DNA of 46,075 nt from a virus. The notes under the pieces were generated by a model. That model saw only the letters and a list, made by a program, of their open reading frames with translations. It did no database searches and had not been told where the DNA came from. A program made the position numbers and the translations under genes. This document shows positions 95 through 44,865 of the stretch, piece by piece. The stretch covers positions 1 to 46,075 of IMG/VR virus record IMGVR_UViG_3300002461_000377; one strand, given 5' to 3'. Each line of letters begins with the position of its first letter. Position 1 is the stretch's first letter.

Positions 95-2064
95 AACAAC
101 TTGTCAGCGTGTCTTACGGTAGCCATTGGTATAAGCGCTGCTTCTCTAAGCTGACAACGCCCGAGAAGTGGTTCGCGCAAACTCCTTTCATATGGGATAC
201 AGTAGATGAGTTCTCCGCAAAAGGTGCATATGACGCTTTACACACGGCGCGTGCTATTGCCATCGATATTGAGACATCTCGTGATGGGCTCCGGCGAATA
301 CTCTGTGTCAATTACACCGGCATTTTCTTTAACAATAAAACAAGATGCTTCTATACAAGAGGATATGTTCTCCCTATCAACTCCATGCGCGCTGTGGGTT
401 GGATGCGTGCGTTCAACAGGCTTGACCCTCCAAAGATATTCCAGAACGGAAAGTACGACAACGCATACTTTACCCGCTACGGATGCCCAGTAACTAACTG
501 GTTCTTCGATACGCTGCATGGCTTTCACTGCTGGTATAGTGAGATGCCAAAGACTTTGGACTATCTCACAGCGTATCTGATACGAGACGTAGTGTACTGG
601 AAGGACCAGAGCGGCGAGGATCTTTATCAGTACAATGCCCGCGATGGTTGGGCTACTGCGAACGCATGGCTTGCGCTCATGAAAGAAGCGCCGGCGTACT
701 GGGAAGGTAATTACCAGCAAGAGTTCCCGCTAGTATTCCCGTGCTTGCAGATGGACCTGGACGGCCTAGCTGTTGACGAAGAATCGCGGGCCGGCTTATC
801 TATCACGCAACATGCACAGCTTGACGAGTCGCTGCTATCTCTGCGCCGCAGGCTCGGTGTGCCTAAGTTTAATCCTAGCAGCCCCGTGCAATGTAAGAAG
901 TTGTTGCAGGTACTATCGTGCTCCGGTAAAAAGCCGCTACCTCAAGAGCTTGCGAAAGTAACTAGCTCTGATAAGCGGGCAATGCAACTCTGCGCAGACA
1001 AGCACCCCCTTAATCAAATACTTATTGAGGCCCTCCTTGACTACCGCGAATCGCGTAAACTACTTAGTGACTACCTTGAAGCCGAACTCTATCACAGGCG
1101 CTTCTTGTATTCTCATAATCCCGGGGGCACCGATACTGGGCGGCTTGCTAGCAACGAGTCTTACTTTTGGTGCGGGCACCAGATACAAAACATGCCGGCG
1201 TACTGTAAGCAAATGCTCGTTGCCGATCCAGGATACCACCTCTGCGAAATTGATAAGGCTCAATCGGAATCGTGGTGTACTGGGTATCTTTCCGGCGACA
1301 CTAACCTCATCGCTGCCTTACAGTCCGGGCGAGATTTCCATTCAGTTAACGCAAGCGCTTTCTTTGGAATATCTTACGAAGATCTTTGGGATGTGGACGG
1401 AAACGAAACCAAAAACAAGCCCATCAGAGACTTAAGCAAGCGCACGAATCACGGCGCTAACTACAACATGCAAGAGAACATGCTACTAATAACAATGGGG
1501 GCGAAGAATGTCATTAAGGCCAAGGTTCTCCTCAAACTGCCAGCTGAATGGAGTCTTAAACGAGTATGTCAGTATCTGCTCCAACAGTTTGATAACACTT
1601 ACCCGGTGGTACGAGGAGCTTGGTATGAGCACGTGCGTTATTGCATACGTGCCACCAAGCTTTTGGTCGGGCCTACCGGCTGGACACGATACTGCTTTGG
1701 CGACCCGGATAGAAATAAACGGCACCTTAATGCATACGTCGCGCATCCCCCACAATCGTTGTCCGTTATGGTTGTTAATAGGGGGCTCACCAATATCTAC
1801 CGCGAACTTCAAGGTCCTGATCTGCGACTCAAGGCTCAGGTCCACGACTCAATTCTCTTTCAGTATCGAATTGGGCGACTCGATCTCGTACAACGAGCTG
1901 AAGAACTCATGCGAGTTACCGTCCCAGTCACCGATTGTTTTGGTACAACGAGAGAACTTACGATCCGTAATGATGTTAAATGTGGAGCGCGGAAATGGAG
2001 CGACTTAAAGAGCTTTTCGAAAGTACTAAAAGAGCAGCAATCGCAGTCTGCGTTATTGATGTAA
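1..2064 (+). CDS. DNA polymerase, family A (PolI-like) with 3'-5' exonuclease domain. The 5' end is cut by the window linearisation.
   Basis: Frame 1 is open from base 1. Exonuclease motifs: AIDIETS, QNGKYDNAYF, YNARDGW. Polymerase motifs: CEIDKAQSES (A), RDLSKRTNHGANYNM (B), QVHDSILF (C). Confidence 0.9.
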   Translation, partial: KKTLTRTPRTDPFEGSYFEAHGIKWVVVPPAEQLVSVSYGSHWYKRCFSKLTTPEKWFAQTPFIWDTVDEFSAKGAYDALHTARAIAIDIETSRDGLRRILCVNYTGIFFNNKTRCFYTRGYVLPINSMRAVGWMRAFNRLDPPKIFQNGKYDNAYFTRYGCPVTNWFFDTLHGFHCWYSEMPKTLDYLTAYLIRDVVYWKDQSGEDLYQYNARDGWATANAWLALMKEAPAYWEGNYQQEFPLVFPCLQMDLDGLAVDEESRAGLSITQHAQLDESLLSLRRRLGVPKFNPSSPVQCKKLLQVLSCSGKKPLPQELAKVTSSDKRAMQLCADKHPLNQILIEALLDYRESRKLLSDYLEAELYHRRFLYSHNPGGTDTGRLASNESYFWCGHQIQNMPAYCKQMLVADPGYHLCEIDKAQSESWCTGYLSGDTNLIAALQSGRDFHSVNASAFFGISYEDLWDVDGNETKNKPIRDLSKRTNHGANYNMQENMLLITMGAKNVIKAKVLLKLPAEWSLKRVCQYLLQQFDNTYPVVRGAWYEHVRYCIRATKLLVGPTGWTRYCFGDPDRNKRHLNAYVAHPPQSLSVMVVNRGLTNIYRELQGPDLRLKAQVHDSILFQYRIGRLDLVQRAEELMRVTVPVTDCFGTTRELTIRNDVKCGARKWSDLKSFSKVLKEQQSQSALLM

Positions 2065-2183
2065 TCGATATCATTCCGTTCATCATAGCAGCTTGCGGCT
2101 TCATTGTTGGTGTCTTAGTAACTGCCGCCGTCACGGGGTATAACACAGGGAGGAACTGGGTATGTCATCGGGTAACGGAGTAG
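1995..2183 (+). CDS. Small hypothetical membrane protein (62 aa)
   Basis: ATG at 1995 lies 7 nt after GGAG. Hydrophobic segment IIPFIIAACGFIVGVLVTAAV. Overlaps the 3' end of the polymerase gene. Confidence 0.35.
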   Translation: MERLKELFESTKRAAIAVCVIDVIDIIPFIIAACGFIVGVLVTAAVTGYNTGRNWVCHRVTE

Positions 2184-2383
2184 AGAGCGGGGAATGTAAG
2201 GAGTGTGGGGTTACTATTAGCGGGCCGGCGGCACTCTTGCATGAAGGTACGAAGGACTTACCTGGTAAGTATATCCGCGATCGTATCTGCTTGGTGCGTG
2301 AGGTAGAAGAAAACATTGATACCGGAGCAATCATTACCCGCTGGTATCTCGACGAGATGCATGTGCCGGAGACTCCGAGATGA
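2162..2383 (+). CDS. Hypothetical protein (73 aa) with a CxxC motif
   Basis: ORF lies in the plus-strand gene series. CKEC motif. Its stop overlaps the next start (ATGA). Confidence 0.4.
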   Translation: MSSGNGVESGECKECGVTISGPAALLHEGTKDLPGKYIRDRICLVREVEENIDTGAIITRWYLDEMHVPETPR

Positions 2384-2640
2384 GAATCAAGATGCACCAA
2401 GCGCGCTCAGGTAGCCAAGTAAATCGCATAACCTTGGAGTGGCGCACGCAGGAATTAGCTGATGCTTTGGAACTTGCCGGCCCTGTAAGAAAAGACGCGC
2501 TGAAGACTGCATCCGAGTTAGATAGCGCCGCGGGCCGCATATTTCGGGCGTATCTCATAGCCTCAGTTATCGAGGACTCTGTGCATGCTAAGAGATCCCC
2601 GGAGCCCCCGCCGCCGCTGATACTACCTCCTGGGTACTGA
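2380..2640 (+). CDS. Hypothetical protein (86 aa)
   Basis: ATGA start/stop overlap with the upstream ORF suggests translational coupling. Confidence 0.45.
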   Translation: MRIKMHQARSGSQVNRITLEWRTQELADALELAGPVRKDALKTASELDSAAGRIFRAYLIASVIEDSVHAKRSPEPPPPLILPPGY

Positions 2641-2646
2641 CTCATC

Positions 2647-3870
2647 ATGGCAAAAGACGCCTCATTTTTTGACGCGTACTTTGCCTATACTGCCGGCGAT
2701 GAAGTACCGCTTATCTATCATCGGTGGTGTGCAATAGCTGGAGTCGGCGCCTTGTTAGGTCGCCGGTTCTGGCTTAAGCACGGGCGTAGTACCATATGGC
2801 CAACGCAGTACCTGATGCTTATTGGTGGTCCCGGTGCCCGCAAAGATACAGCGATAGCATGCATTCGCGGGTTACTAAAAGCTAGCGGGTATGAATCCTT
2901 AGCAGCTACTAAGACAACAAAAGAGAAGTTCCTCTTGGACTTAGAAGGGCTCCCGGAGGGGCAAATAACGGCGGAGCAACTAGATGAATTCTTACGAGAA
3001 GACTCTGACCCTCGGGAAGTTTTTATCATGGCAGGGGAGTTCGGAGAATTCCTAGGCTATGGTAACATAGAGTTCGTATCCCTGCTGACAGCGTTGTGGG
3101 ATTATACGGGTGTGTTTGAGTCTCGTCTTAAGAACTCGCGCTCGGTTAAGATACAAGATCCAACTGTCAGCATACTCGGAGGTAACACGCCCGCGGGATT
3201 TGCACTTACTTTCCCGCCAGAAATCATCGGGCAGGGATTCTTTAGCCGCTTACTACTTATCTACGGAGAGCCGACAGGGAGACGTATCACCTGGCCTACA
3301 GTACCATCAGAAGCAGATGTCGCTGCTATGGCTAAACTGATGAGGGATATTCAATATGCTATCCATGGCGAAGCTATCCTTCCGCCTGACACACAGCTGG
3401 CACTTGATGAGATTTACCAGGGCTGGAGTGATTTGGAAGATGCTCGGTTTCTTAATTACAGCAACAGGAGACTTACTCATCTATTTAAGCTGTGCCTTAT
3501 TTGTGCTGCTTGCCGTCTTTCAAGAACTGTCGAGTTACAGGATGTTACCCTTGCCAATACCATTCTTACACACGCTGAAGGACTTATGCCTAGAGCACTG
3601 GGCGAGTTTGGTAAAAGCAGGCATGCTGATGTTAGCGCTAAGGTGCTATCTTTTTTGGAGACAGTAGGGAAGCCCGCGACTATCACAGATATTTGGAAGG
3701 CCGTCTCCACGGATCTTGAGAAGCTCAATGACTTAGGTAATATCCTCATGAACCTGGAGCAGGCGGAGAAGATTCAGCGCGTAGCTAAGCAAGGATTCCT
3801 GCCGCTGAAGAAGGCCCGCGGAGTTAATAGTAAGTACGTAGATTTTTCGTTGTTACCTGAAGCACGTTAA
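2647..3870 (+). CDS. P-loop NTPase, putative replicative helicase (DUF3987/VirE-like by motif impression)
   Basis: Walker A-like LIGGPGARKDT, acidic FIMAGEFGEF, and an ILGGNTP block. Lies next to the DNA polymerase. Confidence 0.5.
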   Translation: MAKDASFFDAYFAYTAGDEVPLIYHRWCAIAGVGALLGRRFWLKHGRSTIWPTQYLMLIGGPGARKDTAIACIRGLLKASGYESLAATKTTKEKFLLDLEGLPEGQITAEQLDEFLREDSDPREVFIMAGEFGEFLGYGNIEFVSLLTALWDYTGVFESRLKNSRSVKIQDPTVSILGGNTPAGFALTFPPEIIGQGFFSRLLLIYGEPTGRRITWPTVPSEADVAAMAKLMRDIQYAIHGEAILPPDTQLALDEIYQGWSDLEDARFLNYSNRRLTHLFKLCLICAACRLSRTVELQDVTLANTILTHAEGLMPRALGEFGKSRHADVSAKVLSFLETVGKPATITDIWKAVSTDLEKLNDLGNILMNLEQAEKIQRVAKQGFLPLKKARGVNSKYVDFSLLPEAR

Positions 3871-3893
3871 CTCATAGTACGACTGGAGCTAAG

Positions 3894-4412
3894 ATGAATA
3901 ACTACGATAAAGTTGCACTTTTCTTGCGCGTCGGCGGCATTAAGCAAGGGGAGCTGGCAGATATACGCACCGATGCTACGGCACGAAGTACGGAAAGAAG
4001 CTACGCTCTTATCATGGAGGAGTTCAACGAGCTAGAAGAAGCTATGGAGAAGTTTCGGGCGGACCGCAGCTTGCAAACTCTCATCGATGTTACTGACGCA
4101 CTCATTGATATCGAGTACGTTATTAACAACATGCACTACGAGCTGGGCTTGCCCGCGATGAAGCTCTTTAACGAGGTGCATGAGTCTAACATGCGGAAGC
4201 TTCTACCTTGCCCGTCGTGCCAGGTTAGCAAGGAAGACGGGTGCGCGATGTGCAACTACACCGGCTTCGTAGTAAGGAAGAGCCCCGTTGGCAAGATCCT
4301 TAAGCCGGAAGGCTGGCAAAAACCTGATATATCTAAAGTGCTTTGCCGAGCCTACGAAGAATCTGTAGACAGGGTAACCGAACTTCGTGATGTGAAAGGA
4401 GCAGGGGAATGA
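3894..4412 (+). CDS. MazG-like nucleoside triphosphate pyrophosphohydrolase with an inserted Cys4 element
   Basis: EEFNELEEAME and DALIDIEYV acidic helices typical of all-alpha NTP-PPases. CPSC...CAMC insertion. C-terminal GKILKPEGWQKPD. Confidence 0.65.
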   Translation: MNNYDKVALFLRVGGIKQGELADIRTDATARSTERSYALIMEEFNELEEAMEKFRADRSLQTLIDVTDALIDIEYVINNMHYELGLPAMKLFNEVHESNMRKLLPCPSCQVSKEDGCAMCNYTGFVVRKSPVGKILKPEGWQKPDISKVLCRAYEESVDRVTELRDVKGAGE

Positions 4413-4804
4413 AAGCAAAATACGAGATCGTCGTAACTCGGATCACGCTGGAGAAGGAGATGGTTGCAGAGAAGTGGCAACCTATCGGCTCGCACGTAGT
4501 AGAAGGTAGCGACAAGCTTGGCACTACGTATGGCTATCCGCCAAGCCGAAAGCAGGAAGTCGAGAAACGGGAACAGATATTTCACCAGACGTTGGAAGCT
4601 CTGGATCTGTCCCGGCTTGTGGTGGCGATTCAGAATGAAGCTAAGACGCCCGCGCCTGTTATCTACGACCCGCAAACTCATACTTACGTAGAAGGCGTCG
4701 GGCTTGTAGAGCGCAAGCCGTGGACCGATCCACAGAAACTAGTGGAGATGCTTAAAGGTGCTCCTAATGACCTTCCTAAGGACCTAGATCTTCCGCCCGT
4801 GTAG
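4409..4804 (+). CDS. Hypothetical protein (131 aa), the last gene of the plus arm
   Basis: ATGA overlap with the MazG stop. Its 3' end overlaps the convergent minus-strand ORF by 29 nt. Confidence 0.5.
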   Translation: MKAKYEIVVTRITLEKEMVAEKWQPIGSHVVEGSDKLGTTYGYPPSRKQEVEKREQIFHQTLEALDLSRLVVAIQNEAKTPAPVIYDPQTHTYVEGVGLVERKPWTDPQKLVEMLKGAPNDLPKDLDLPPV

Positions 4805-7800
4805 TTCCGCCACTCATGAAATCAGGAAGGCGTTCACCACCCATGATCTCTTGCAATCCTTGTGCTAGCGGATTATTTAGCTTATCCCGCAGCACATTGA
4901 CTTGGCTGGTGTTCGCCATCCGCATCTGCGTTACCATGAACTTGGAGAACTGATCTTGCCTGCCCCCACTCTTAGCGTAAGCCAGCGCAAAGTCTTGTAC
5001 TTCGTCGTCAGACGGATTACCGCCCGCGACAAGCGTTGTCTTGATTGCACTTCCAAGCTTCTCACGACGTGCCCGGTCCTTGGCTTGATACGCTTTGATA
5101 CGGTAGAGCGCATCGAGAGCGACAGCCTCATCAAAGGGCTTGCCACCAGCCATCCGCGCTGCATTAGAAATATCGAACAAATCGATGCTACTAAGGAGCG
5201 AGCCTTTACTCGTGGTCGTATACCCATTGAGTACTTGTGCAATGCCAGCAAGAGGTCTATTAAGGCCGTTATGTTCCAGACCTTGCAGGATAGTATCTTT
5301 GAACTCACCCCCTTTAGAGAGTTTACTGGCAGTGTCAAGCAGATTGCCAAAGAAGCCCGCAGTTGCTTTAACAAGCGGGATTTCAGCTGGATCTACTGGG
5401 AGCACTGTTATCTGCCGGGGGTTGATATCCCCTCTGCTATACAGATTAAACTTGAGGTCCGGATGGAGCAGGCCGAGAGCATTACTAGCAAGGCCGTAGA
5501 GGAGCCAATCGCCAGCCTCTTTGCCCGCGACGCTATAAGCAGCATGGTAGATATCCTTGTGAGCGGGGTTCCCATCTGCATTACCGACGAGATGCGTGTT
5601 GATAGCGTGGAAACCAGGGAGGCCCTGAAGTCCATAGATAGTACCCTGCATCATAAGTAAGTTAATAGCGCCTCTGCTTTGCTCCGTACTTACATACCGA
5701 AGTAAATTCTGCAGGAGGTTGAATTGATAAGTCTGGAACAGCCCGATAGCCTGCCCGATGACGCCCTGAAATACGATTGGTCGTTGGCTGGCGAGATAAT
5801 TTCCTGCCACACGATTGGTAAAAGTTTGTATATATGCGGCTGCTTCGCGGCTACTCATGAGGCCGTTGGTGGTTGCAATATCGGTAAGCTGCTTCATACT
5901 GGCAGCAGCTACGAACCGGGTAAACTCCTCCGAAAATTTATTCCCAGTTATCTTACTGCCAAGTTCAAGAGCGCTGGTAACCCGCGCGTCGAGAGCTGCA
6001 GCAGTTTCATTTCCGCGCACAGTAAGATTGTCAAGCATCTGCCTGTGCTGATACAGGAAGTCGCTTACCACATTCATGTTGCGGAATTCGTTAAGCAGTA
6101 CCCCTCCAGCGCGCGCATCTTCAAAGTACATCTTAATACTATTGCCGAGCAGCTTCCATGTCGTTGGCATGGCGACCTTACCATTAGTGCCTGGCACTAT
6201 CACTTCTCTGAGGCCGGCCAGCTGCCCGACGACATCAGCGTTTCCGTTTTTAATGGCTCTGAGTACATGCGACATCTCAGAACTATAGAGTATTGGAGTG
6301 CCGACGATGTTGTTAAGTGCATTAAGCGGGTCTAGCCCGAGGATAGTACCGCTGAGAATAGCCTGTGCCTTAGCTACGAATCGTCCAAGGTACGGCTTCT
6401 CAGCAATCTCGTTTGCCAGCAGTCGCTCCATCCCATCACGGTAAGGCTGCCCGAGGCCGTAGTCACTGGCCATCTTATTAAAAGCTGTAGCCTCCGCGTC
6501 CCCGAATTTGCCAAGACCTATAAAGCCCTCGCGAATTATCTTGGCACTCTTGCTTACTGAGTCTTCTACCCAAGTATTGATAGACCTCCAAGGCCCGTAC
6601 TCGCTGCTCCGACTGATATTGAGCATCGTCTTAATGATGTCATTGTACGGGTTGTCCGCGCTATCTACTACGGACTGAGCAACGGAGCGGAACTGCGAGG
6701 ATTCCACAGCGCCATAGCGAAGACCAAGCTGGCGTAGCTCCTCCGTAGTATGAGCATAGCGCATCTCTACGCCTTCCCGCACCAGCTTTATTTCCTCCCG
6801 CATGTGCCATTCCATGAACTCCGTGGAAATCTTCTCACTAGCTCCCTTGCCCGCGGGTGGGATAACATCGCTAAGAGCGCCGGCTCTGCGCAGGGAAGTA
6901 TCAACGAAGTTCTCATTAAGCCCGAGAGAGTATTCGTAATCTCCGCGCGCCTGGTGATAGAGCTTGCTATCAAACTTCGTTATCACCTGCCCGGAATGCT
7001 TACCCTCGAAAGTATCCTTGCCTGTCTGCCGCATGAATACCATGCGTTGAAACTCGGGCCGCCTCGACATCTCGTCGATCTTAGCAGATAGTCCTTCAGC
7101 AGTCTGACTTACGATGACACCGACATGGGGCTGTGCTCCAATGCCATCGTGCTGACGTACTAGGGCAAAGAACTTAAAGTCGCGAGTGTTAACAGGCGGA
7201 AAGTATAGCAGCGGGAGCCCGCGTTTTTCTGCGTCAGTAACGTCTCCGAGACCGCGGGCAGCTCTAGCATTTCTATAGTGCGTCCTACGACCTTCGTTAA
7301 TATTGATATGCTGGTCTAGGAATGCGTAAACATCCTTGGACACGTCGAGACGTATTGGAGTGCCCGCGAATACTGGCGCGTAGTCTTCCTTCAATATTGG
7401 CACGAGACTACCATCCGCCCCCTTAACCCACTTCTCGATAGCGTCATGCATGACAAGCTGGTTATTAGCACGGTCGAGCATGAACTTCTCTGGCGACCGC
7501 TGCACCATGCTCTTGATGAATGACAGCTCTGCCGTAAGTTTCTCGTCCCGCAGGATAGGAGCGAGAGTGCTAGTTACCTGCTTAGTAACCTCATCGATCT
7601 TTGCCTTAGACGCACGATCGACAAAGGAGCCAATGCGTTCCGCCATTGATGCGATACTTCCGTACTCTCCGCTGGCAAAACTGATGAAGCCGGCGCCCGC
7701 GCCTTCTCTGCTAGCATCTCGAATGAGATAGTAGAGTTCTTCCGGAGACGGGATCGCACTGACGCCGGCCTCGCCGCTAAACATATTTGCGAAGACATTC

Positions 7801-9827: not shown

Positions 9828-9829
9828 GA

Positions 9830-32208: not shown

Positions 32209-32303
32209 GGTGCTTGTGTTCCTTTCTTGCTATCCTCGGGGGCCTGCCGAGGCAGGTGGTGCGGTACTGCACCTATATAGTAAGCAGAGATCATGCCACG
32301 GAG

Positions 32304-33280: not shown

Positions 33281-33397
33281 CCGCCTGGGCCGTGGTAAGA
33301 GAAGTCTTAGTAAGACCTGAAGGCAGGAACACTGAAGGCAAGCAAGTCATAAGACGAGTCACTTACGAGATGCTAGATAACAACTGGAGATACTACG

Positions 33398-33565: not shown

Positions 33566-33589
33566 ATACTAAGCTCAAGGAAAGTAACC

Positions 33590-34941: not shown

Positions 34942-34942
34942 T

Positions 34943-37264: not shown

Positions 37265-37266
37265 GC

Positions 37267-37524
37267 ATGGACAAGATATTCGTAGTGCATTGTTGTGGCG
37301 TATATATCCAAGGCATCGTCGGCGTATTCAATACGCTCGAAGCAGCGAAGGAGGTAGCAGAGCGCTTTCAGAAAGCAGAGAACGAAGAGGATGGCTACCA
37401 CTTCTATGAAGTAGTAGAAGTCCCTGTTAATATGCCCGCGAAGTGGGAGGTACGAGGCAGTACCGGAACTCGCTTCGCTGAGTTTCCTACCGTTCACCGC
37501 ACAATAGAGCAAAGGTGGAGATAG
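37267..37524 (+). CDS. Hypothetical protein (85 aa)
   Basis: ATG at 37267 lies after AAGGA. Confidence 0.45.
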   Translation: MDKIFVVHCCGVYIQGIVGVFNTLEAAKEVAERFQKAENEEDGYHFYEVVEVPVNMPAKWEVRGSTGTRFAEFPTVHRTIEQRWR

Positions 37525-37525
37525 C

Positions 37526-38311
37526 ATGCCCGCGACAATTAAGGAAGCAGTGGAAGAGCTGATAATGGTAGTTGACACCGGCAAACTCAGTGCTAAGGAC
37601 CACGACTTCGGGATCAGCCTCTGCGAGTACTATCGCAAGCATGGAAAGCTCAGTGATAAGCAGCTCTACTGGGTAATGAAGTTCATAGCTGAAGCTTCCG
37701 GCGCGAAGGTGTCGCTGCCCGCGGTTGCTGCTAACAAACCGCAAGCAACAGTGGATACCATGGCATTCGATGCCGAGCCACTAAGGGCTATTTTCGACAA
37801 GGCCCGCAGCTTCCTGAAGTACCCATCGATAACCTTATCAGGCGCGCCAATCACAAGCGGGAAGCTGCGCATCTATCTTAGCACGCATTCAACTAACTAC
37901 GCTAATCACCTCATGTTTAAGTCTGCTACGTCAGACCTAGATAAGCTGCTCTATGCTTCTGTCGATCCCATGGGCAAGGGCACCCTGTACTTCTATCCTC
38001 TGCGCCAGCGGCTAGCACTAGGATCTTATAAGAAGGAGGATAACACGGAGCTTGTCAATCTTATCATCGGCATTTCCCTAGATCCGACCCGCGTTACCAA
38101 GATGAACGGCATCAAGTTCTCGCACTGCTGCTTCTGTAATAACGAACTCACTAATGCCAGTAGCCTCTACCATGGATACGGACCGGTGTGTGCAGAGCAC
38201 TACGGACTTCCTTGGGGAGAGGTGCCCGCGAAGTTAGAAGATATCAGCGCTCCCGAAGCACCTACTACAACTACCAAGGCTAAGGATACTAAGTATGCAG
38301 GCCCCTTCTGA
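37526..38311 (+). CDS. Hypothetical protein (261 aa) with a C-terminal Cys motif
   Basis: AAAGGTGGAG RBS. The start codon is embedded in ATGCCCGCG. C-terminal CCFCNNELTNASSLYHGYGPVCAEHYGLPW. Confidence 0.5.
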   Translation: MPATIKEAVEELIMVVDTGKLSAKDHDFGISLCEYYRKHGKLSDKQLYWVMKFIAEASGAKVSLPAVAANKPQATVDTMAFDAEPLRAIFDKARSFLKYPSITLSGAPITSGKLRIYLSTHSTNYANHLMFKSATSDLDKLLYASVDPMGKGTLYFYPLRQRLALGSYKKEDNTELVNLIIGISLDPTRVTKMNGIKFSHCCFCNNELTNASSLYHGYGPVCAEHYGLPWGEVPAKLEDISAPEAPTTTTKAKDTKYAGPF

Positions 38312-38564
38312 CCCCGAAGCTAGCTTACACATCGCGGGCATTAACACTGTCACCATTGACACGACCATACCATCGATGCTTGTCGAGGGCATGAATAACA
38401 TTCACGTCATTATCGATAGGACAAACAACCTCCTGACAGTGAACTCTGATGCCGGCGTTATCTTATCTGTTAAGGGAATCACCGGTGCTATAGGCATTAC
38501 GTTTCAAGATCTTGCTAAGGCGGCTATTGCAAGAGGTCTGCAATCAGGCAAAAAAACCCCTTGA
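38295..38564 (+). CDS. Hypothetical protein (89 aa)
   Basis: ORF overlaps its upstream gene by 17 nt. Confidence 0.4.
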   Translation: MQAPSDPEASLHIAGINTVTIDTTIPSMLVEGMNNIHVIIDRTNNLLTVNSDAGVILSVKGITGAIGITFQDLAKAAIARGLQSGKKTP

Positions 38565-38589
38565 CGCGGATTCGGCCTTGCGGTATAGT
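38561..38589 (+). promoter_or_regulatory. Near-consensus sigma70 promoter
   Basis: TTGACG (38561..38566), a 17-nt spacer, then TATAGT (38584..38589), about 70 nt upstream of the ATG at 38659. Confidence 0.7.
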
Positions 38590-38658
38590 TGATGTTCCTC
38601 TGAAGCAAGAGGCCCACAGGTTATTAGTAACTCCAAACAACCAAGGACATTTGCAGAA

Positions 38659-39393
38659 ATGACTGACAACACCAACGAAGGACAAGCACTCGCACACCCC
38701 GCACTGGTATCTACCAGCGTTGCGATGAAGCCGATTACCTTCTTCTTCAAAGAGAAGAAAGATGCTAACGGCAAGAAGACTGGCTATCGCCGGCCCGCGT
38801 TGAACCTTAATATCCCGATCCCGTCGGCAGTCTTCCTTGCTTCCGTCATCAGCAACGGCATCACTGCGTACCGGCAAGTCATCCCGGAAGGTGCTGCTAT
38901 CCCCAGCGATGTTTCCAGCGCCCGCAACATGCTGGACTTGCTCCTGAACGCTAGCGCTGACATCGTTTACAACGCGGCCCGCCAGCAAGTCAACGACAAA
39001 GACGATATCTCGCAAGAGACTCTCGATATGTCGAAGATCAGCTGGGAACACATCGCTAACATCCCGCCGGCGGAACGCAAGGGCACTGGTATCAACGAAG
39101 AAACCTGGGAAGACTTCGTCAAGGACTACGTTGCTGTCATGCCCGCGGCGCTGTCTTCGCAAGGTATCAGCAAGACCGAGGAGCAGATTGCTACGCAAGC
39201 TGAGATCCTCAAGAAGAAGTTTGCTGCTTACCGCCAGCAGAAGAAGATCGTCGGTTACATGCGCCAGATGCTGGCTCTCTGGTATCAGCACACGCAGCAG
39301 AAGGAAGACTTTGCCAGCGTGTACGAGTACCTCGATGGGCGGGCCGAAGTTCTGCTGAAGGCCGACGAACAAGCTGTGCTTGAGAACATCTAA
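38659..39393 (+). CDS. Hypothetical, probably abundant early protein (244 aa)
   Basis: Has its own promoter and a downstream hairpin. Strongly biased codon usage gives a 282-aa antisense shadow ORF. Confidence 0.6.
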   Translation: MTDNTNEGQALAHPALVSTSVAMKPITFFFKEKKDANGKKTGYRRPALNLNIPIPSAVFLASVISNGITAYRQVIPEGAAIPSDVSSARNMLDLLLNASADIVYNAARQQVNDKDDISQETLDMSKISWEHIANIPPAERKGTGINEETWEDFVKDYVAVMPAALSSQGISKTEEQIATQAEILKKKFAAYRQQKKIVGYMRQMLALWYQHTQQKEDFASVYEYLDGRAEVLLKADEQAVLENI

Positions 39394-39421
39394 GCATCGG
39401 CTCAGCTAACTAGCAAAGCTG

Positions 39422-39463
39422 AAGGGTATCTGGGGGCGTTCCCTAGGTACCCTTTGTCATTTC
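39422..39463 (+). terminator. Hairpin terminator candidate
   Basis: 14-bp stem AAGGGTATCTGGGG/CCCTAGGTACCCTT (two G-T pairs), loop GCGTT, and a weak T-containing tail TGTCATTTCT. Confidence 0.4.
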
Positions 39464-39488
39464 TAGTGGTAGCGAAAGGGGTGGTATT

Positions 39489-39788
39489 ATGAGTGAGAAA
39501 GCAGAGCTGTCGGTGCCCGAGATTGTTGAGAAGCTATTCGAGGGCAGCGAAGTAAGAGTACCTCTAGGTTTGTTTACGGGCTCAACAGCAGTCGAAGCCT
39601 TCCTCTCTCACGTGCGTACTACGAAGTCCCGCACTGTTAAGAAGTTCCGTGCTGTTGGCTTCGAGTTTTGCGGCGACCAGATGAGTCTCAGTGTTGCGCA
39701 TGACCCAGTAACTGACAGTATGACTCTTAAGCTAGTGCCGCCGAAGGTTCCGAAGTACACAGTCATCGTAACTCCCGCGGAAGAATAG
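39489..39788 (+). CDS. Hypothetical protein (99 aa)
   Basis: GGGGTGG RBS-like sequence upstream. Confidence 0.45.
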   Translation: MSEKAELSVPEIVEKLFEGSEVRVPLGLFTGSTAVEAFLSHVRTTKSRTVKKFRAVGFEFCGDQMSLSVAHDPVTDSMTLKLVPPKVPKYTVIVTPAEE

Positions 39789-39796
39789 GCGCAATC

Positions 39797-40039
39797 ATGC
39801 CTAGAATGTACGAGCCTCTTTGGGAGCAGCTTTCGACCGCCGGCATGGTGCGCATACGCTGTGCGCCGGATGCTGTCAGTCGTATTAAGAAGGCTGTTAT
39901 CAAGGAGAAGGACATGGCAGCTGACCCGAAGTGGAGGCATCGCCGGCTCCTTATCTCGATCAGCAAGGGCACTGAACCTAATACCTCTGACGTAGAGTTC
40001 AGGCTTGTCGCTAAGCTCTCGTCAATAGCTAATATATAG
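39797..40039 (+). CDS. Hypothetical protein (80 aa)
   Basis: ORF in the plus-strand series. Confidence 0.45.
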   Translation: MPRMYEPLWEQLSTAGMVRIRCAPDAVSRIKKAVIKEKDMAADPKWRHRRLLISISKGTEPNTSDVEFRLVAKLSSIANI

Positions 40040-40048
40040 GGGCGCAAG

Positions 40049-40303
40049 ATGTACCTTGAGATGTACCCGGAAGAATACTGGAAGTGGCAGCAGCGCATGC
40101 GCCGTAGTTTCCCGGAGCACTGGGAGAAGATTAAGGATGCGACCAGCGAGGAAGCAGTGATAGATTACATGAACTGGTGGCTTGGTTCATCTGTGTCACT
40201 GGGTACGTCGATAACAGATAGCGTTGCTGTCTGGATGGAGCGCATGGATAGAGTTGCCGGCGGTTCTAGTATCATCCTTCCGCCCGGCGTTCGGCTTAAT
40301 TAA
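40049..40303 (+). CDS. Hypothetical protein (84 aa)
   Basis: ORF in the plus-strand series. Confidence 0.45.
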   Translation: MYLEMYPEEYWKWQQRMRRSFPEHWEKIKDATSEEAVIDYMNWWLGSSVSLGTSITDSVAVWMERMDRVAGGSSIILPPGVRLN

Positions 40304-40456
40304 GGAAACCTAGAGACAGCAATACCAGGGAGATACGCCCCGGCTTGATTAGCCGCGGTTGCACGGCAGACTAATCACCTGACAGTGCATTAAAGATGTC
40401 TCCCGCGTTTTGCTGTTTCCTGCGTATGACTTACATTGGTACCGAGGAGAAAGACA

Positions 40457-40735
40457 ATGCCTGAAGCACTATCCGAAAGCGAGCAGATCCTGCAAAGAAT
40501 CGGCGACCTTGAGAAGCTCTTACTAAGCGGCCACCCGCAGCTTGGCATGGAGCTGGCCCGGATTCACAAGAACGTAGCAGAGCAGCCGGAGTTGCTGCAT
40601 ATCCTATCAGATGAGCAGATCGCGCTGATAGTAAAGAGCCAGTCGAGAGTAGCGCAAATCGATATCCTGCAGGATAAGGTATCAAGCAAGTCTGCAAGCA
40701 AGCCCAAGAAGACTGTTACGCTCGACGATATCTAG
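40457..40735 (+). CDS. Hypothetical protein (92 aa)
   Basis: ATG at 40457 lies after GAGGAGAAAG. The track start at 40436 is a TTG without an RBS. Confidence 0.45.
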   Translation: MPEALSESEQILQRIGDLEKLLLSGHPQLGMELARIHKNVAEQPELLHILSDEQIALIVKSQSRVAQIDILQDKVSSKSASKPKKTVTLDDI

Positions 40736-40740
40736 GAGTC

Positions 40741-41040
40741 ATGGCAATGACTGGATATAGAGTGCTGCCACCGTATCGTCCGACACGCCCGCGAAAACTA
40801 GCGCAGCAGTATAACAGCATCATTCGCAACGTAGCCGGCGCGCTCGCACAGGCATCTTACATATCTAATATTGTCAATGCGTCCTATCGTGCCGGCGAAC
40901 TTGATGGCGTAGACTACACGGCGATGTGCCTGAGCTTGGATAACTTCCGCCTGGCATGCAGGAAGCTTAAGCACCAAGCTGGTATTACGCGGGATCAGGC
41001 AATAGCAAGTGCCCGCGACAAAGAACCAAAGGTTAAGTGA
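40741..41040 (+). CDS. Hypothetical protein (99 aa)
   Basis: ORF in the plus-strand series. Confidence 0.45.
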   Translation: MAMTGYRVLPPYRPTRPRKLAQQYNSIIRNVAGALAQASYISNIVNASYRAGELDGVDYTAMCLSLDNFRLACRKLKHQAGITRDQAIASARDKEPKVK

Positions 41041-41573
41041 TGAGCACCGCGAGTAAATACGATAGGATAGTCATGGCTAGAGTTCTTAGCTATCGCTATT
41101 TTAATTCCGATATCACACCGACGTCGCTCTACTACGACCTGCACACTACAGTCTGCCGGCAGCCGTGGGTAGAGAGTATCGTAGCTAAGTGGAATCGCCA
41201 CTTGCACGGTCCCGTGCCCGGTAATAGTATCTGCTGGGGATGCAAGGAGACGCTCAGGAACTGGGCAGTTCGTGGGATTGTTGATACCTGCGCTTATTGC
41301 AGCCCGCATTTTCGCGACTTGTATCCCGGCCCGCAAGCAATGCTGCTAGCTACAGCGCACGATGCGAGGCTTTTGCTGTACACCTTCTCTTGGCAAGATC
41401 AAGATTATATCTACGGCATACTCTACCATCACATGAGAGTGCAACCTGATCATGGAATACTTCCGCAATCCTACCAGCGGCGCGTATCGCAAGAAGATGT
41501 CCAACCCGCGTGCAATCTCGTACTCAACTCGCCGCACGTTACACTCATGCCCGCGGCGCTTCGAGTTGGATAA
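41040..41573 (+). CDS. Cys-rich (CWGC...CAYC) zinc-finger-like protein (177 aa)
   Basis: Start overlaps the upstream stop (TGATG). Cys4 pattern. Its 3' end overlaps the nuclease gene. Confidence 0.45.
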   Translation: MSTASKYDRIVMARVLSYRYFNSDITPTSLYYDLHTTVCRQPWVESIVAKWNRHLHGPVPGNSICWGCKETLRNWAVRGIVDTCAYCSPHFRDLYPGPQAMLLATAHDARLLLYTFSWQDQDYIYGILYHHMRVQPDHGILPQSYQRRVSQEDVQPACNLVLNSPHVTLMPAALRVG

Positions 41574-42426
41574 GCTGAAGAATGCTGATGTCTTTAGCGA
41601 GGATGAAAACGCGGGCCTGCAAGATAACATCGACTTTGCCTACGGTAGCAGTTTTGCTGCTGGCATCCAGCAGTGTCTCATTAAGCGGGACAGGACTGCT
41701 ATCATCTTCTCTGCCTGGCTTGCCTGGGATACGGACCTGCTGGCATCGAAGCCTGATAAGCGTAAGAGTTTCTCTTATGTTGTAGCGGCACTCGATAACT
41801 TCCTAGCTCACTATCAATCCTTCATGGGGAATTGGGAGCTTGCGTATATCGAGGGGAAGCCCGCGGTTGAGTTGTCAGTACGTGTCGATCTTGGCAATGG
41901 ATACTATTACTACCTGCACATCGACGGCGTACTACGGCATAAAGTCTCGGGCAAGTTCCTTATCCTGGAGCTGAAGACAACAGGCTTTAATAATATCCAT
42001 CCCGCGATCTTTCAGAATAGCGATCAAGGTCTCGGGTATTCTATCGTGCTCGACTCGCTAGTCGAAGATAAAGAGAACCTAGTTTACGAGGTACTGTATC
42101 TTGTGTATAAGACAAGCCGGCAGGAATTTGAACCTATGTTCTTCACGAAGCGACGTCTTGAGCGCATTAGCTGGATTAGAAACCTACTATTTGATTGCGA
42201 AGACATCGAGAAGTTTAAGAGCGCCAAGCACTTTCCCCAGCGCGACAGCGGCTGCTACTCTTACTTCAGAGCTTGTCCTTATTTCGAGATGTGTGGGATG
42301 AGGACTAGCAGCTTGACGAAGTATAACACGCTTAGTGATATGGTCGAAGGGGAGCTAGCGCCAGCGGATTTCGAAGTTAGCTTGCAGCAGATTATCAATG
42401 ACCAAGCAGCAATGATCGGAGGCTAG
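41452..42426 (+). CDS. PD-(D/E)XK nuclease of the Cas4/RecB-like type with a four-Cys cluster (324 aa). Start uncertain: 41452 or 41497.
   Basis: N-terminal SCPRRFEL, core HIDGV...LILELKTT, and C-terminal CYSYFRACPYFEMC. Confidence 0.7.
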   Translation: MEYFRNPTSGAYRKKMSNPRAISYSTRRTLHSCPRRFELDKLKNADVFSEDENAGLQDNIDFAYGSSFAAGIQQCLIKRDRTAIIFSAWLAWDTDLLASKPDKRKSFSYVVAALDNFLAHYQSFMGNWELAYIEGKPAVELSVRVDLGNGYYYYLHIDGVLRHKVSGKFLILELKTTGFNNIHPAIFQNSDQGLGYSIVLDSLVEDKENLVYEVLYLVYKTSRQEFEPMFFTKRRLERISWIRNLLFDCEDIEKFKSAKHFPQRDSGCYSYFRACPYFEMCGMRTSSLTKYNTLSDMVEGELAPADFEVSLQQIINDQAAMIGG

Positions 42427-42431
42427 CAGCA

Positions 42432-43337
42432 ATGAACCTTAATGAGTACAACGGCCAGGCATTTCAGAAGATACTTATATACGGGCCGGCGAAGATGGGT
42501 AAGAGCGCACTCGCAGGCACACTAGCGGAGTTCTTTAATGTCACGTATAACGACGCGGAAGATGGTGTCAAGACGCTCTTGCAAATGCCATCGGAGTGGA
42601 AGGCCCGCGTGGATCTCGTGCAGTTCCCTGACACGCAGGATTACCCGATATTTGCAGAGAGCGCACTTAAGATCCTGCGTGGCGGCGAAGTTACGATCTG
42701 TAATACACATGCGAAGGTAGACTGCATGTTGTGCAAGGCTAATAAGAAGCCTCTGACCACGGAGCATCTTAATGCCCGCGACCCGCAGCGTGTTTATATC
42801 TTCGACAGCTGGACTCAGTTTCGTATCAGCTGCATGTGGCAGCGCTATCGTACGGCGTACAAGGGTAAAGAGCCCGAAGACTGCAAGTTCGAGTGGGATG
42901 ACTGGCACTGGCTTAAGATGGTAAATGAGAAGGCAGGCAGTTACATACAAGCTGCCCGCGGCCATCTTGTTGTTGTCAGCCACGAGGAGATGGTAGAGCA
43001 GGAAGATAAGCGGAAGCAGGTCGTGCCAGTCGCGGGCAGCGAGAACACTAACAAGACCTTTGCCCGCTACTTTGATCATGTTATCTACGTGACGAAGCGC
43101 AACAATAAGATCCGCTATATCAGTGAAGCTACCGGCAGCAACGATGCAATGTCCGGGTCTCGTGCGTCCTTCTCCATCGAAGGCATGAAGCAAGAGACTC
43201 TCTCACTTGCCCCGTTCATTGATCCCACGCTTATTAACAAACCCCGGAAGGGTATCAGCGGCTTTGCTTTCGCAGCTCAAGCAGCTAAGAACGCAGCTTC
43301 CGGTAAAGCTGATGACAAGGAGAAGTCTGGTGAGTGA
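42432..43337 (+). CDS. RecA-fold ATPase of the AAA_24/Sak4-like type with a Cys4 insertion (301 aa)
   Basis: Walker A ILIYGPAKMGKSALAG, Walker B VYIFDSWT, and insertion CNTHAKVDCMLC. Confidence 0.65.
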   Translation: MNLNEYNGQAFQKILIYGPAKMGKSALAGTLAEFFNVTYNDAEDGVKTLLQMPSEWKARVDLVQFPDTQDYPIFAESALKILRGGEVTICNTHAKVDCMLCKANKKPLTTEHLNARDPQRVYIFDSWTQFRISCMWQRYRTAYKGKEPEDCKFEWDDWHWLKMVNEKAGSYIQAARGHLVVVSHEEMVEQEDKRKQVVPVAGSENTNKTFARYFDHVIYVTKRNNKIRYISEATGSNDAMSGSRASFSIEGMKQETLSLAPFIDPTLINKPRKGISGFAFAAQAAKNAASGKADDKEKSGE

Positions 43338-43599
43338 GAATCAAGAGTTCGATATACACGACCCTCTGACAAGGGTTGCCATCGTGGATACGATGAAGGC
43401 CCTGGTAGCACTGCCCGCGGGAGTTACTGCTACGGAGTTCCTCGCGCTGATCCGTCCGCTGCAAGAGCAGCACGGATTTAAGGCTGTAATATACTGCGTA
43501 GTAGCAGCACTGCTGGCGCAGAAGGGAGTAATTAAAGCAGCTGAGACACATATCGAGAGCGCCTTGGCAGCACTCGCTACTTTCAAGGAGCCGAGATGA
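43330..43599 (+). CDS. Hypothetical protein (89 aa)
   Basis: GTG at 43330 lies 7 nt after AAGGAG. ATGA overlap with the next gene. Confidence 0.4.
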   Translation: MSENQEFDIHDPLTRVAIVDTMKALVALPAGVTATEFLALIRPLQEQHGFKAVIYCVVAALLAQKGVIKAAETHIESALAALATFKEPR

Positions 43600-44243
43600 A
43601 GTCCTTTAAGGACATCGGACTCGATAGAGTCATCGGTATTTGCGGGCAGGCTGGCACCGGCAAGACTACGGCAGCTGTAGCAATAGCGCAGTCGCTTCCT
43701 TATTGGCGGTATAGCTTTGCCGGCCCGCTGAAAGACGCAGTATCAGGTCTATTCAGGATTCCTCGCGAGGATCTCGATGATCCTATTAAGAAGTACGTAC
43801 CTCAAGGACGCTGGAGGAATCTTGCGCCGCGTAAGATCATGCAGCTATTCGGCACGGAGTGCATGCGCGACGTATTCTTTGACGACTTCTGGACGCGAGT
43901 AGCAGAAGATCACTTGGAGCACTTAGCAGCTGCGACACTTACCAAGCGTCTTTGCGTTGTCATCGACGACGTTAGATTCCCTAACGAGATTGAGTGGGTT
44001 AAGAATAACGGCGGCCGCATCATCTATCTGTTTACGCCGCGCACTGGGGAAGTGCAGGAAGGTAAGCTGCACTCCAGCGAACGTATCAATATCCCGCGGG
44101 TACTAGGTGCTAATGAGGCGACAGTATGCAATGTACAAGGCGCCCAAGGCAAGTTTGTTAACGATGTTCTTCGCATAGCAAAGAGGTGGCACTACGAGAA
44201 CGATGATCTGGAACTGACTCGGCAGCAAGATAGTAAGAAGTAG
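43596..44243 (+). CDS. Deoxynucleoside monophosphate kinase-like protein (215 aa)
   Basis: ICGQAGTGKTT P-loop, FAGPLKDAV, LFGTECMRD, and VVIDDVRFPNEIEWV blocks typical of phage dNMP kinases. Confidence 0.65.
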   Translation: MKSFKDIGLDRVIGICGQAGTGKTTAAVAIAQSLPYWRYSFAGPLKDAVSGLFRIPREDLDDPIKKYVPQGRWRNLAPRKIMQLFGTECMRDVFFDDFWTRVAEDHLEHLAAATLTKRLCVVIDDVRFPNEIEWVKNNGGRIIYLFTPRTGEVQEGKLHSSERINIPRVLGANEATVCNVQGAQGKFVNDVLRIAKRWHYENDDLELTRQQDSKK

Positions 44244-44250
44244 TATTGGG

Positions 44251-44290
44251 TAATAGTGAGCAGCACTGAGTAATAGCCAGCAGCACTTGT
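44251..44290. repeat. Two tandem 20-nt imperfect direct repeats
   Basis: TAATAGTGAGCAGCACTGAG and TAATAGCCAGCAGCACTTGT match at 15 of 20 positions. Confidence 0.6.
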
Positions 44291-44323
44291 GTTTTACCTC
44301 ACCCTAATGGAGCTATACGCATC

Positions 44324-44797
44324 ATGAATACCAAAGTCAAATCTGAAGTTACCGCCTCCGACGAAGAAGCAATGGCCGCACTGCTCGATGATAACTTGGA
44401 AGATGTTCCTGATCTTCCTGAGTTTGGCACTCCGCCGAAGGGCACGTATCGCCTGCTGCACAAGGGCTACGAAACCAAGAAGATCAACGACAAGCTGGCA
44501 ACGGAGTGCCGCTTCAGCATCGTCGAAACCATCGAGCTTGCTAACGAGAACGATACTCCTCCGAAGGCCGGCATGGAGTTCTCGGAACTCGTGTGGTTTC
44601 ATAATGACCCCATGAAGGCGAAGGGCGTTCTTAAGCGGCAGGTGAATAACTTGACCGGCGAGTTCGGTACCACCAACTTGGCGGAACTGATGGCTAAGGT
44701 CAAGGACATGGAAGTTATCGCGGTCGTTAACACGCGGCGTGACAAGGAGGACAGGGAGCGCTTCTATGCGTCCGTTGAAATCCTCCGGCTGGCGTAG
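44324..44797 (+). CDS. Acidic hypothetical protein (157 aa), probably highly expressed
   Basis: Preceded by an 80-nt intergenic region and followed by a hairpin with a T-tract. Biased codon usage. Confidence 0.55.
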   Translation: MNTKVKSEVTASDEEAMAALLDDNLEDVPDLPEFGTPPKGTYRLLHKGYETKKINDKLATECRFSIVETIELANENDTPPKAGMEFSELVWFHNDPMKAKGVLKRQVNNLTGEFGTTNLAELMAKVKDMEVIAVVNTRRDKEDRERFYASVEILRLA

Positions 44798-44813
44798 TTA
44801 GTATTTGCAGTGC

Positions 44814-44865
44814 CCGCGGGAGCCTATGGTAGCACTGTCCGGCCGTAGATAACTCCCGCGGTTTT
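44814..44865 (+). terminator. Rho-independent terminator candidate
   Basis: 9-bp stem CCGCGGGAG/CTCCCGCGG with an internally paired loop (CTATGG/CCGTAG), followed by TTTT. Confidence 0.45.

Follow-up and report, generated by a model that had tools for sequence, protein, structure and literature searches.

In phages LLS, MD8 and P1, the recombination signal Chi of the host is the most frequent octamer of the phage genome, at about one copy per 1.4-1.9 kb: LLS carries 23 Chi (20:3 by orientation, one per 1.9 kb), MD8 carries them in one orientation only (32:0), and P1 carries 50 in 95 kb (PMC12315714). Cyanobacterial chromosomes are rich in another kind of word, the highly iterated palindrome (HIP) HIP1, GCGATCGC, together with its alternates GCCGGC within RCCGGY, GCSGC and GGCGCC (PMC4390886). 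Here we describe a short GC-rich word in an environmental phage, IMG/VR record IMGVR_UViG_3300002461_000377, the whole of which (positions 1 to 46,075; 46,075 nucleotides) is referred to below as the window. The octamer TGCCCGCG, with its heptamer core GCCCGCG, is about 30 times commoner than expected in this genome and in its closest relatives, and in the literature the word was met only as incidental primer or sequence matches.

The DNA uptake sequences (DUS) of Neisseria and the uptake signal sequences (USS) of Pasteurellaceae are 9-12 bases long, stand equally on both strands, often as paired terminators, and build up in a competent host through uptake and recombination. Similar to these, the word in the window is short, hyper-abundant and lineage-specific, occurring about once per kb and within genes; dissimilar from them, it is unequally divided between the strands and forms a single overlapping inverted pair, the palindrome GCCCGCGGGC at 18262-18271, which a preliminary description of the window had already pointed out. 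The stoperators of cluster A mycobacteriophages, sites of 13-14 bp that are mostly intergenic and are bound by the repressor of a temperate phage, likewise consist of tens of copies of an asymmetric site spread over a phage genome and oriented with transcription; the word here, however, is 8 bp long, lies within genes (82 of 85 copies) and occurs in both orientations in each transcribed arm, and no convincing repressor and no integrase were found in the window. In phage T7, EcoP15I sites stand in a single orientation, by which Type III restriction is evaded. A strand-biased, short, asymmetric word is thus spread genome-wide in both phages, but T7 lacks one orientation, whereas the window has an excess of the word, with 13-27 copies in the minor orientation and abundant head-to-head pairs.

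Abundance and DNA-level character of the word

The preliminary description, made from the sequence alone, had counted about 58 copies of GCCCGCG on the plus strand, about 41 of them preceded by T, and about 27 copies of the complement. A machine count returned exactly these numbers: 58 copies of GCCCGCG and 27 of CGCGGGC, 85 in all, of which 54 are the octamer (41 of TGCCCGCG on the plus strand and 13 of its complement CGCGGGCA). Every position that had been given as an example holds a copy (637, 4151, 9651, 22181, 26106, 30253, 33242, 37528, 39141, 41549 and 44812 on the plus strand; 7253, 22041 and 43031 on the minus strand), and all starts are given in Table 1. TGCCCGCA and TGCGGGCA were found 10 and 11 times, respectively. 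Expected counts of the octamer per strand are 0.9 from base composition, 1.5 from an order-2 Markov model and 3.9 from an order-3 model. TGCCCGCG is the commonest octamer of the genome, and all of the runners-up overlap it. By our own estimate the strand biases of 41:13 and 58:27 have two-sided binomial p values of roughly 2e-4 and 1e-3.

That the excess goes beyond chance, as had been claimed, was borne out by 500 shuffles of each of two kinds, in which either synonymous codons were permuted within each gene or whole codons were permuted. Synonymous shuffles gave 9.5±2.5 heptamers on the plus strand and 4.6±1.9 on the minus strand (maxima 17 and 12), and 5.4 and 1.4 octamers (maxima 10 and 7); whole-codon shuffles yielded fewer copies. 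None of the codon-preserving shuffles reached the observed counts, which exceed all 500 by 3- to 6-fold, and this holds although the synonymous shuffles are generous, as they reuse the codons contributed by the copies themselves. The minor orientation is itself enriched by this measure (27 heptamers and 13 octamers).

The base before the heptamer is T in 41 of the 58 plus-strand copies and C is rare at +1; the other flanks are random, and neither a second motif nor a longer consensus was found around the copies. Only three single-base variants of the octamer are enriched, namely C at position 1, G at position 5 and A at position 8. The preliminary description was right that one-off variants are common, but these proved to be particular sister forms: TGCCGGCG and CGCCGGCA have 10 and 13 copies, and the palindrome GCCGGC has 62 copies against about 20 expected, mostly as YGCCGGCR. 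The word family is therefore YGCCSGCR, with TGCCCGCG dominant. GCGCGC, CGCGCG and E. coli-type Chi words showed no enrichment in the window. Spacing is Poisson-like (coefficient of variation 0.91-0.97, against 0.97 for random placement), with no periodicity and no regular spacing; on the plus strand it is about 0.8-1.1 kb, and the widest gaps between octamers reach 3.5 kb on the plus strand and 12 kb on the minus strand.

Copies occur in all three reading frames and in both coding orientations, xxG-CCC-GCG and xxC-GCG-GGC being the commonest arrangements. The word had also been said to occur in non-coding DNA, and it does, but marginally: 3 of the 85 copies lie outside called open reading frames (ORFs). 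The palindrome at 18262-18271 is the sole overlapping inverted pair. An exact 16-mer, TCATGCCCGCGGCGCT, was confirmed at 39137-39152 and 41545-41560 and nowhere else, where about 0.01 such pairs would be expected among 41 copies. Its two copies share a frame only if ORF 41037-41573 is the gene at the second site, and a common short peptide, His-Ala-Arg-Gly-Ala, is possible there.

To relate the copies to coding opportunity, the peptide contexts able to host the octamer by synonymous choice were counted as used or available. In the plus-transcribed (early) arm, 17 of 22 sense contexts are used, with 0.7 expected from codon usage, and 2 of 21 antisense contexts (0.4 expected); in the minus-transcribed (late) arm, 11 of 29 sense contexts (0.6 expected) and 21 of 72 antisense contexts (1.9 expected) are used. 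The word thus occupies 10-77% of compatible contexts, against about 2-3% expected from codon usage, and it is written into genes by synonymous codon choice. The earlier claim that selection acts on DNA rather than on protein is upheld by the occurrence in all frames, by the survival of the excess in codon-preserving shuffles and by the synonymous differences from orthologues described below. Whatever reads the word, the near-saturation of the early sense contexts shows with unusual clarity how selection on DNA words can override codon choice, and such words should be taken into account in analyses of phage codon usage, of restriction-site avoidance and of host prediction.

Relatives and orientation

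Four relatives from other samples were found through capsid homologues (capsid identity 80-90%, G+C 49-55%): A (a contig of SRR30862795), B (a contig of SRR29476932/4), C (a JGI contig) and L139, a short contig. The four large contigs of this clade have a G+C of 52-55%, and L139 has 49%. All four relatives share the enrichment, which in A extends to TGCCGGCG. The DNA of the relatives is about 70% identical to that of the window, and 20-36% of the copies are at orthologous positions. Copies that are not shared face synonymous alternatives (e.g., GCCCGCG against GCTCGTG), and several orthologous positions exchange CGCGGGC and CGCCGGC. Density is maintained at the DNA level while individual positions turn over.

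The boundary of the enrichment is sharp. Lineages whose capsid proteins are 57-68% identical, or whose terminases are 42-51% identical, have zero or one copy of the word, as do Polaromonas phage Tiera, Pseudomonas phage PaP2 and EBPR podovirus 3. The sister lineage L262 has the same G+C (53%) but carries the word 0 and 1 times in 11 kb; composition alone therefore does not account for it. Across eight core structural proteins, motif-negative relatives use 0-1 of 20-45 compatible contexts.

The orientation of the copies was then related to the two arms. The preliminary arm counts, 29 against 8 in the plus-transcribed arm and 29 against 19 in the minus-transcribed arm, were exact, and a plus-strand excess is present in both arms; the count set beside those of the relatives gives 27:8 and 31:19. 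For the octamer, the early arm is the most polar, with 20 copies on the plus strand and 2 on the minus strand; the late arm has 21 on the plus strand (antisense) and 11 on the minus strand (sense), and antisense contexts are there 2.5 times as frequent as sense contexts, X-Ala-Gly being common. In relative A the arms have 15:4 and 21:11 (36:16 in total), and in relative C 12:8 and 12:7 (24:15 in total).

From such counts it had been proposed that polarity follows the molecule rather than transcription. A logistic model of the octamer in four genomes upheld this in part only: a preference for the sense strand is the stronger effect (odds ratio 3.5, p = 3e-8), and a molecule-wide preference for the plus strand remains beside it as the weaker one (odds ratio 1.9, p = 0.007). 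By genome, the plus-strand odds ratio is 4.9 and significant in the window and 0.6, hence absent, in B. For the heptamer the odds ratios are 2.6 for sense and 1.7 for the plus strand. It should be noted that normalising to opportunity would inflate the sense effect if many copies had come by amino-acid change, and the core proteins of the clade do offer 1.3-1.5 times as many compatible contexts as those of sister clades. The safe conclusion is that orientation matters, in one respect by arm and in another by the molecule as a whole, and that both orientations far exceed expectation.

A possible Chi-like signal and its rivals

We tentatively favour, as the best of several readings though less likely than not, that TGCCCGCG or its complement CGCGGGCA might be a Chi-like polar signal for a host helicase-nuclease of the RecBCD/AddAB type. 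An oriented, dispersed, DNA-level word whose number is conserved and whose positions are not points to a reader that travels along DNA, and the orientation effects (the 41:13 bias and the two octamer odds ratios) argue for a moving reader rather than a symmetric binder. A host enzyme of this kind would enter at double-strand ends, such as termini, rolling-circle tails, cut concatemers, collapsed forks and restriction breaks, and would degrade the DNA until it met the word from the correct side, whereupon RecA loading and recombinational repair would follow. A phage lineage that neither blocks nor avoids the enzyme would gain from a correctly oriented copy near any end; selection would then hold the density near one per kb by synonymous changes, and single copies would turn over. 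The preferred sense orientation in each arm would fit ends or forks at the region where the arms diverge, either with Chi on leading strands, under bidirectional replication from this region, or, if the complement is the active strand, with Chi turned towards nucleases coming in from ends at that place. The additional plus-strand bias of the whole molecule would fit one-directional rolling-circle replication or packaging, and the copies in the minor orientation may serve breaks processed from the other direction. Recognition by a host nuclease, the strand that is read and the position of the ends are in this scheme what we infer.

Among the roles that the preliminary description had listed, a Chi-like one is the best supported and has precedents in phages (PMC12315714); primase or nickase sites, modification targets and sites for an organising protein are less likely candidates. 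The Chi-rich phages resemble the window in that a host-type octamer recurs about once per 1-2 kb as the most frequent octamer, in non-random orientation, within genes, beyond what codon usage accounts for and accompanied by frequent one-off octamers (PMC12315714, PMC3784561). The enriched one-off variants in the window parallel the Chi-related octamers of LLS and P1 (PMC12315714), the heavy use of sense contexts in the early arm adds further support, and the word is lineage-specific, much as Chi sequences are host-specific. Neither a Gam-like protein nor any other known inhibitor of nucleases turned up in the window, which is weak support, as many genes are unannotated. Unlike the octamers of the Chi-rich phages, the word does not correspond to any Chi on record; Chi has, however, not been found for most Proteobacteria (Buton and Bobay 2020), so the mismatch carries no weight. 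A smaller set of the same general kind was seen in the cultured relative Tiera (L148, OQ067478.1), in which GCTGGCGC, used as the Pseudomonas Chi (PMC12315714), occurs 7:0, against 0.7 expected per strand, on the terminase-sense strand and in both arms. This set, in a phage with a betaproteobacterial host, looks like a modest Chi-like polar accumulation, and the G-rich reading of the word in the window, CGCGGGCA, lies 41:13 on the terminase-sense strand, as GCTGGCGC does in Tiera.

A number of observations weigh against a Chi-like signal. Polarity is weak and not fully conserved: it is 3:1 here, whereas in the Chi-rich phages it ranges from 7:1 up to 32:0, and the whole-molecule polarity is absent from relative B (13:8 and 6:14 in the arms, 19:22 in total). 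No significant change of polarity along the window was found (P = 0.41). The minor orientation is enriched about 10-fold, whereas LLS and MD8 carry theirs at near-background level; in contrast to LLS, the copies show no clustering towards an end; and with one copy per 0.85 kb the word is twice as dense as Chi is in LLS or P1. The Chi-rich lambdoid phages are without Rec modules, whereas this phage has its own exonuclease and Sak4 annealase. Enrichment of a palindromic sister word, YGCCGGCR, is unusual for Chi, and sister lineages showed no comparable enrichment of any word, so that the family as a whole does not have this habit. A Chi would also be over-represented in the core genes of its host and skewed with replication there; the capsid search described below pointed to no such host. 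The finding is real and striking, and it is best filed with the phages that accumulate an oriented recombination signal of host type; the chance that the word is something other than a Chi-type signal is nevertheless substantial. If it is the Chi of an uncultured host, a phage sequence alone would reveal a recombination signal that is undetermined for most bacteria, and phages in metagenomes could be linked to hosts through bins with the same skewed octamer. The strategy would also extend from recombinase-less temperate lambdoid phages to a virulent-looking podophage with an annealase, which would call into question the proposed trade-off between accumulating Chi and encoding recombinases.

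The word may instead be read by a protein of the phage clade itself, such as a replication factor, a packaging or condensation factor, or the reader of a self-mark against a phage nuclease, which we regard as possible but doubtful. The clade might, with much the same reserve, have gained a reader and then filled its genome with sites, for example priming or loading sites at the scale of Okazaki fragments. Enrichment limited to one clade, with no hyper-abundant word in the sister clades, is consistent with this, as are several unassigned proteins found only in the clade (33590-34591, 34588-34941, 37526-38311 with DUF6011, 41037-41573 and 31352-32002); small phage proteins, however, diverge too fast for presence or absence to decide at this distance, and no candidate reader was found among the proteins of the window. 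Enrichment of both orientations and the quasi-palindromic form YGCCSGCR are what a DNA-binding protein with relaxed symmetry would leave. The plus-strand spacing has the size of Okazaki fragments and no canonical primase domain was found, the 'primase' being a DUF3987 helicase-like protein; on the other hand, the spacing is random rather than regular, with the long gaps given above, and known primases read 3-5 bases, not 8. It is conceivable, if far from assured, that the word is a phage-autonomous genome mark, an oriented octamer in most of the available synonymous positions that is read by a clade protein, and such a mark could perhaps serve, at no better odds, to tell own from host DNA, in replication priming, in packaging or in shielding from the phage's own nucleases. 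A phage-encoded reader would make the word a new kind of genome-wide self-mark, and self-recognition in a virulent phage would then be achieved without base modification.

An imprint of the host is a less persuasive but still arguable source. A host-imposed hyper-abundant word, comparable to HIP1 and its GC-rich alternates or to DNA uptake sequences, would leave an excess that is largely a by-product, and we consider this unlikely; somewhat improbable, too, is the particular route in which biased, methylation-linked mismatch repair, or uptake and recombination, turns near-matches into the word. HIPs are GC-rich words of 6-8 bases at about one per kb, and they resemble the word in density (about 1-2 per kb), occurrence in all frames, origin by point substitution, variation at the end positions and lack of positional conservation (Elhai 2015, PMC4390886); the window, at about one copy per kb and with low positional conservation, agrees with them in these respects. 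Two of the alternates, GCCGGC and GCSGC, are close to the GCCSGC (GCCGGC in the minor form) core (PMC4390886), the variants of the word concentrate at the first and last positions (T or C at 1, G or A at 8), as in HIP1, and at position 5, both orientations are enriched, and orthologous positions often swap CGCGGGC and CGCCGGC. HIPs, however, are words of cyanobacterial chromosomes and are palindromic, whereas TGCCCGCG is a phage word without palindromic symmetry, which in its family belongs only to the minor sister form YGCCGGCR, and it has a significant orientation bias, which neither HIPs nor uptake sequences show. C-to-T precursor words are not depleted, and a drive by very-short-patch-type repair was rejected on this ground; a phage that looks lytic and brings its own polymerase is exposed to host repair only briefly; and no methyltransferase was found among the phage genes. 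Microcystis phage Mel-JY34 has 2 copies of HIP1, which suggests that a lytic phage need not take on the HIP of its host, although this is one example with an uncertain host assignment, and a search of IMG/VR, which is a weak test, found no unrelated phage with a dispersed excess of the word. As for uptake, the one overlapping inverted pair leaves no pairs of the terminator type. It is improbable that the copies mark places where virion DNA is modified site-specifically or nicked on a particular strand, as the DNA of T5 and of the Pseudomonas phages tf and LUZ24 is nicked; the enrichment would then reflect a need for many such places. A strand-biased short GC-rich consensus in a genome of middling G+C would suit such a role, as would the dNMP kinase and MazG-like genes, which are frequent companions of altered nucleotide metabolism; but none of the window proteins could be assigned as a modification enzyme, methyltransferase, HNH nuclease or nickase, both strands carry many copies, and the short-read assembly shows no problem at the sites, which are identical in three assemblies of one run. 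To our knowledge, the consensus sites of known nicks and modifications have not been reported as 30-fold over-represented. A by-product of base composition or of codon or dipeptide usage, or an assembly artefact, is effectively refuted and very hard to credit. The clade does have a higher G+C than its sister clades (52-55% against 43-45%) and somewhat more Ala/Gly/Pro/Arg contexts in its core proteins, and synonymous shuffles do give a 2:1 strand ratio, though by reusing the codons of the copies; against these stand the excess over all shuffles, the near-absence of the word from L262 and from the contexts of other motif-negative relatives, and the recurrence of the same excess in independent samples and assemblers.

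Genome, genes and minor observations

The window represents a podophage genome, circularly assembled and complete at 45,981 bp, with 52% G+C: bases 1-94 are an exact 94-bp direct repeat of 45982-46075 (plus strand), an assembly overlap at which the genome closes as a circle. The ORF of the polymerase probably starts before base 82, across the assembly junction. The sample is an activated-carbon filter metagenome (run SRR2905843); the same sequence is held in NCBI LNFM01 and ENA ERZ922817, and three independent assemblies of this run (NCBI LNFM01, ENA and Logan) give it identically. No near-identical phage was found in GenBank. The phage is related to Fredfastierviridae (Pfam PF17236), and its gene order is that of PaP2, a member of that family, and of Tiera, at protein identities of 22-39%. 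It shares with this family the two arms, an SU10-type capsid and portal, a terminase, a family A polymerase, a DUF3987 protein, a Dda-like helicase and a giant C-terminal structural protein. Searches of the window detected neither tRNAs nor an integrase, a methyltransferase, a nickase or a known nuclease inhibitor; many of its small genes are unannotated.

Table 1. Positions of the word and of other features in the window, with those of the Tiera set (coordinates of OQ067478.1).
Feature	Position	Strand	Remark
Field of dispersed GCCCGCG copies and sister words	636..44819	.	consensus YGCCSGCR
GCCCGCG starts (58), part 1	637, 3189, 3672, 3814, 4151, 4648, 5022, 5523, 6849, 7217, 7362, 7695, 8380, 9033, 9108, 9337, 9651, 10283, 10755, 11109	+	
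GCCCGCG starts (58), part 2	12058, 12517, 12898, 16433, 17904, 18262, 20216, 20510, 22181, 23790, 25013, 26106, 27630, 28814, 30253, 33242, 33461, 33805, 34420, 34468	+	
GCCCGCG starts (58), part 3	35524, 36175, 36905, 37434, 37528, 37717, 38224, 38793, 39141, 40787, 41011, 41549, 41859, 42603, 42774, 42954, 43413, 44812	+	last copy ends at 44818
CGCGGGC starts (27)	785, 2529, 7253, 8535, 10640, 11365, 12849, 13078, 15646, 16697, 18265, 20597, 22041, 22626, 24525, 25256, 25976, 26303, 30141, 30190, 31433, 33862, 35270, 36070, 38333, 41610, 43031	-	785..43037
Early/replication arm	33590..46075, on through the junction to 4804	+	transcribed arm
Rest of plus-transcribed arm	1..4804	+	8 copies, 1.68 per kb
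Family A DNA polymerase	82-2064	+	
DUF3987 primase/helicase-like protein	2647-3870	+	
MazG-like pyrophosphohydrolase	3894-4412	+	
Structural/late arm	4776..32208	-	also encodes tail proteins
1683-aa protein	4776-9827	-	
SU10-like major capsid protein	21763-22980	-	
Portal, SU10-type	24995-26899	-	
Endolysin	26905-27369	-	
Large terminase	27892-29493	-	
Divergence region between arms	32209..33589	.	no confident gene calls; none in the ENA record
RecD/Dda-like helicase with SprT domain	34943-37264	+	
Phage recombination module (exonuclease and Sak4-like annealase)	41452..43337	+	phrog_1218, phrog_124; PF12705, PF13479
PD-(D/E)XK exonuclease	41452-42426	+	PHROGs and Pfam
Sak4-like single-strand annealing protein	42432-43337	+	PHROGs and Pfam
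dNMP kinase	43596-44243	+	
GCTGGCGC in Tiera	6863, 8153, 19094, 27730, 37049, 40063, 45304		one strand only

The word is sparse near the divergence region, with 3 copies in 30306-33589 (0.91 per kb). Within this region, 32852-32923 pairs imperfectly with 33082-33144 as a long inverted repeat whose arms measure 36-55 nt, 32934-32948 and 33048-33062 form a second inverted repeat that is perfect over 15 nt, and a promoter-like element, CTCTTGAC..TGC(C/G)CG(C/G)GA, stands at 32696 and again at 33231, the latter with the word in its spacer. Judging from the inverted repeats and the promoter-like sites, the region is a likely early promoter or origin region, and it is also a candidate terminus; by analogy with the records of PaP2 and Tiera, which start and end at the equivalent place, the physical ends of the genome may lie within it.

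The helicase has a C-terminal SprT-like metalloprotease domain (PF10263), and this fusion is kept in many relatives in protein databases. The conserved early protein encoded at 38659-39393 has 244 residues, with clade homologues that are 56-84% identical and one that is 30% identical. In its predicted model a beta region at the N terminus precedes a C-terminal half that is long and helical, and neither sequence nor fold gave a significant match. A weak resemblance to SeqA-C in a phmmer search (E = 0.01), the one lead to a phage-encoded reader, was pursued and dropped, as neither a profile of 8 homologues nor an AlphaFold2 model (predicted local distance difference test score, pLDDT, 71) searched with Foldseek (best E = 1.6) confirmed it.

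Words resembling the one in the window were followed up in other genomes. In EBPR podovirus 3 (L149, JF412296.1), a GC-rich word that might have been the lineage's own, GCGGCCGC, was rejected, as its six occurrences always lie inside one 25-nt linker-like repeat. This element of about 25 nt, GATGCGGCCGCTTGTATCTGATAC, contains a NotI site and occurs at 9398, 9436, 13813, 29050, 29093 and 38969, some copies forming inverted pairs and one standing at the record end; it looks like the remnant of a linker or adaptor in the assembly as deposited. A polymerase search of metagenomes gave five loci, one of which (L143, ERZ1370068 contig-3869; 60% polymerase identity) has an oriented word, CCGCGCC, at 10:1. 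In its 22 kb no stop-free stretch exceeds 792 nt, which probably reflects a long-read assembly riddled with frameshifts, and its word was set aside as not to be trusted. Scans of IMG/VR for the word yielded mostly high-GC noise among the matches listed for a two-copy pattern, and 116 stretches, nearly all of them tandem protein-coding repeats, for a triple-copy pattern.

A capsid-protein search of a genome collection gave three relatives (L261-L263), in metagenome-assembled genomes (MAGs) labelled Saccharibacteria, Nitrososphaerota and Coxiella. Their membership of these genomes is almost certainly mis-binning and no clue to the host, which is a caution for host inference from MAGs. Finally, several 6-base palindromes are strongly avoided in the window, alongside the excess of GCCGGC: GGATCC and GAGCTC each occur once against 11 expected, CTCGAG twice against 12 and AGGCCT not at all against 7, and TGCA and GATC are avoided as well. 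The same avoidance is present in relatives B and C, and it is ordinary restriction avoidance, as is usual in phages.

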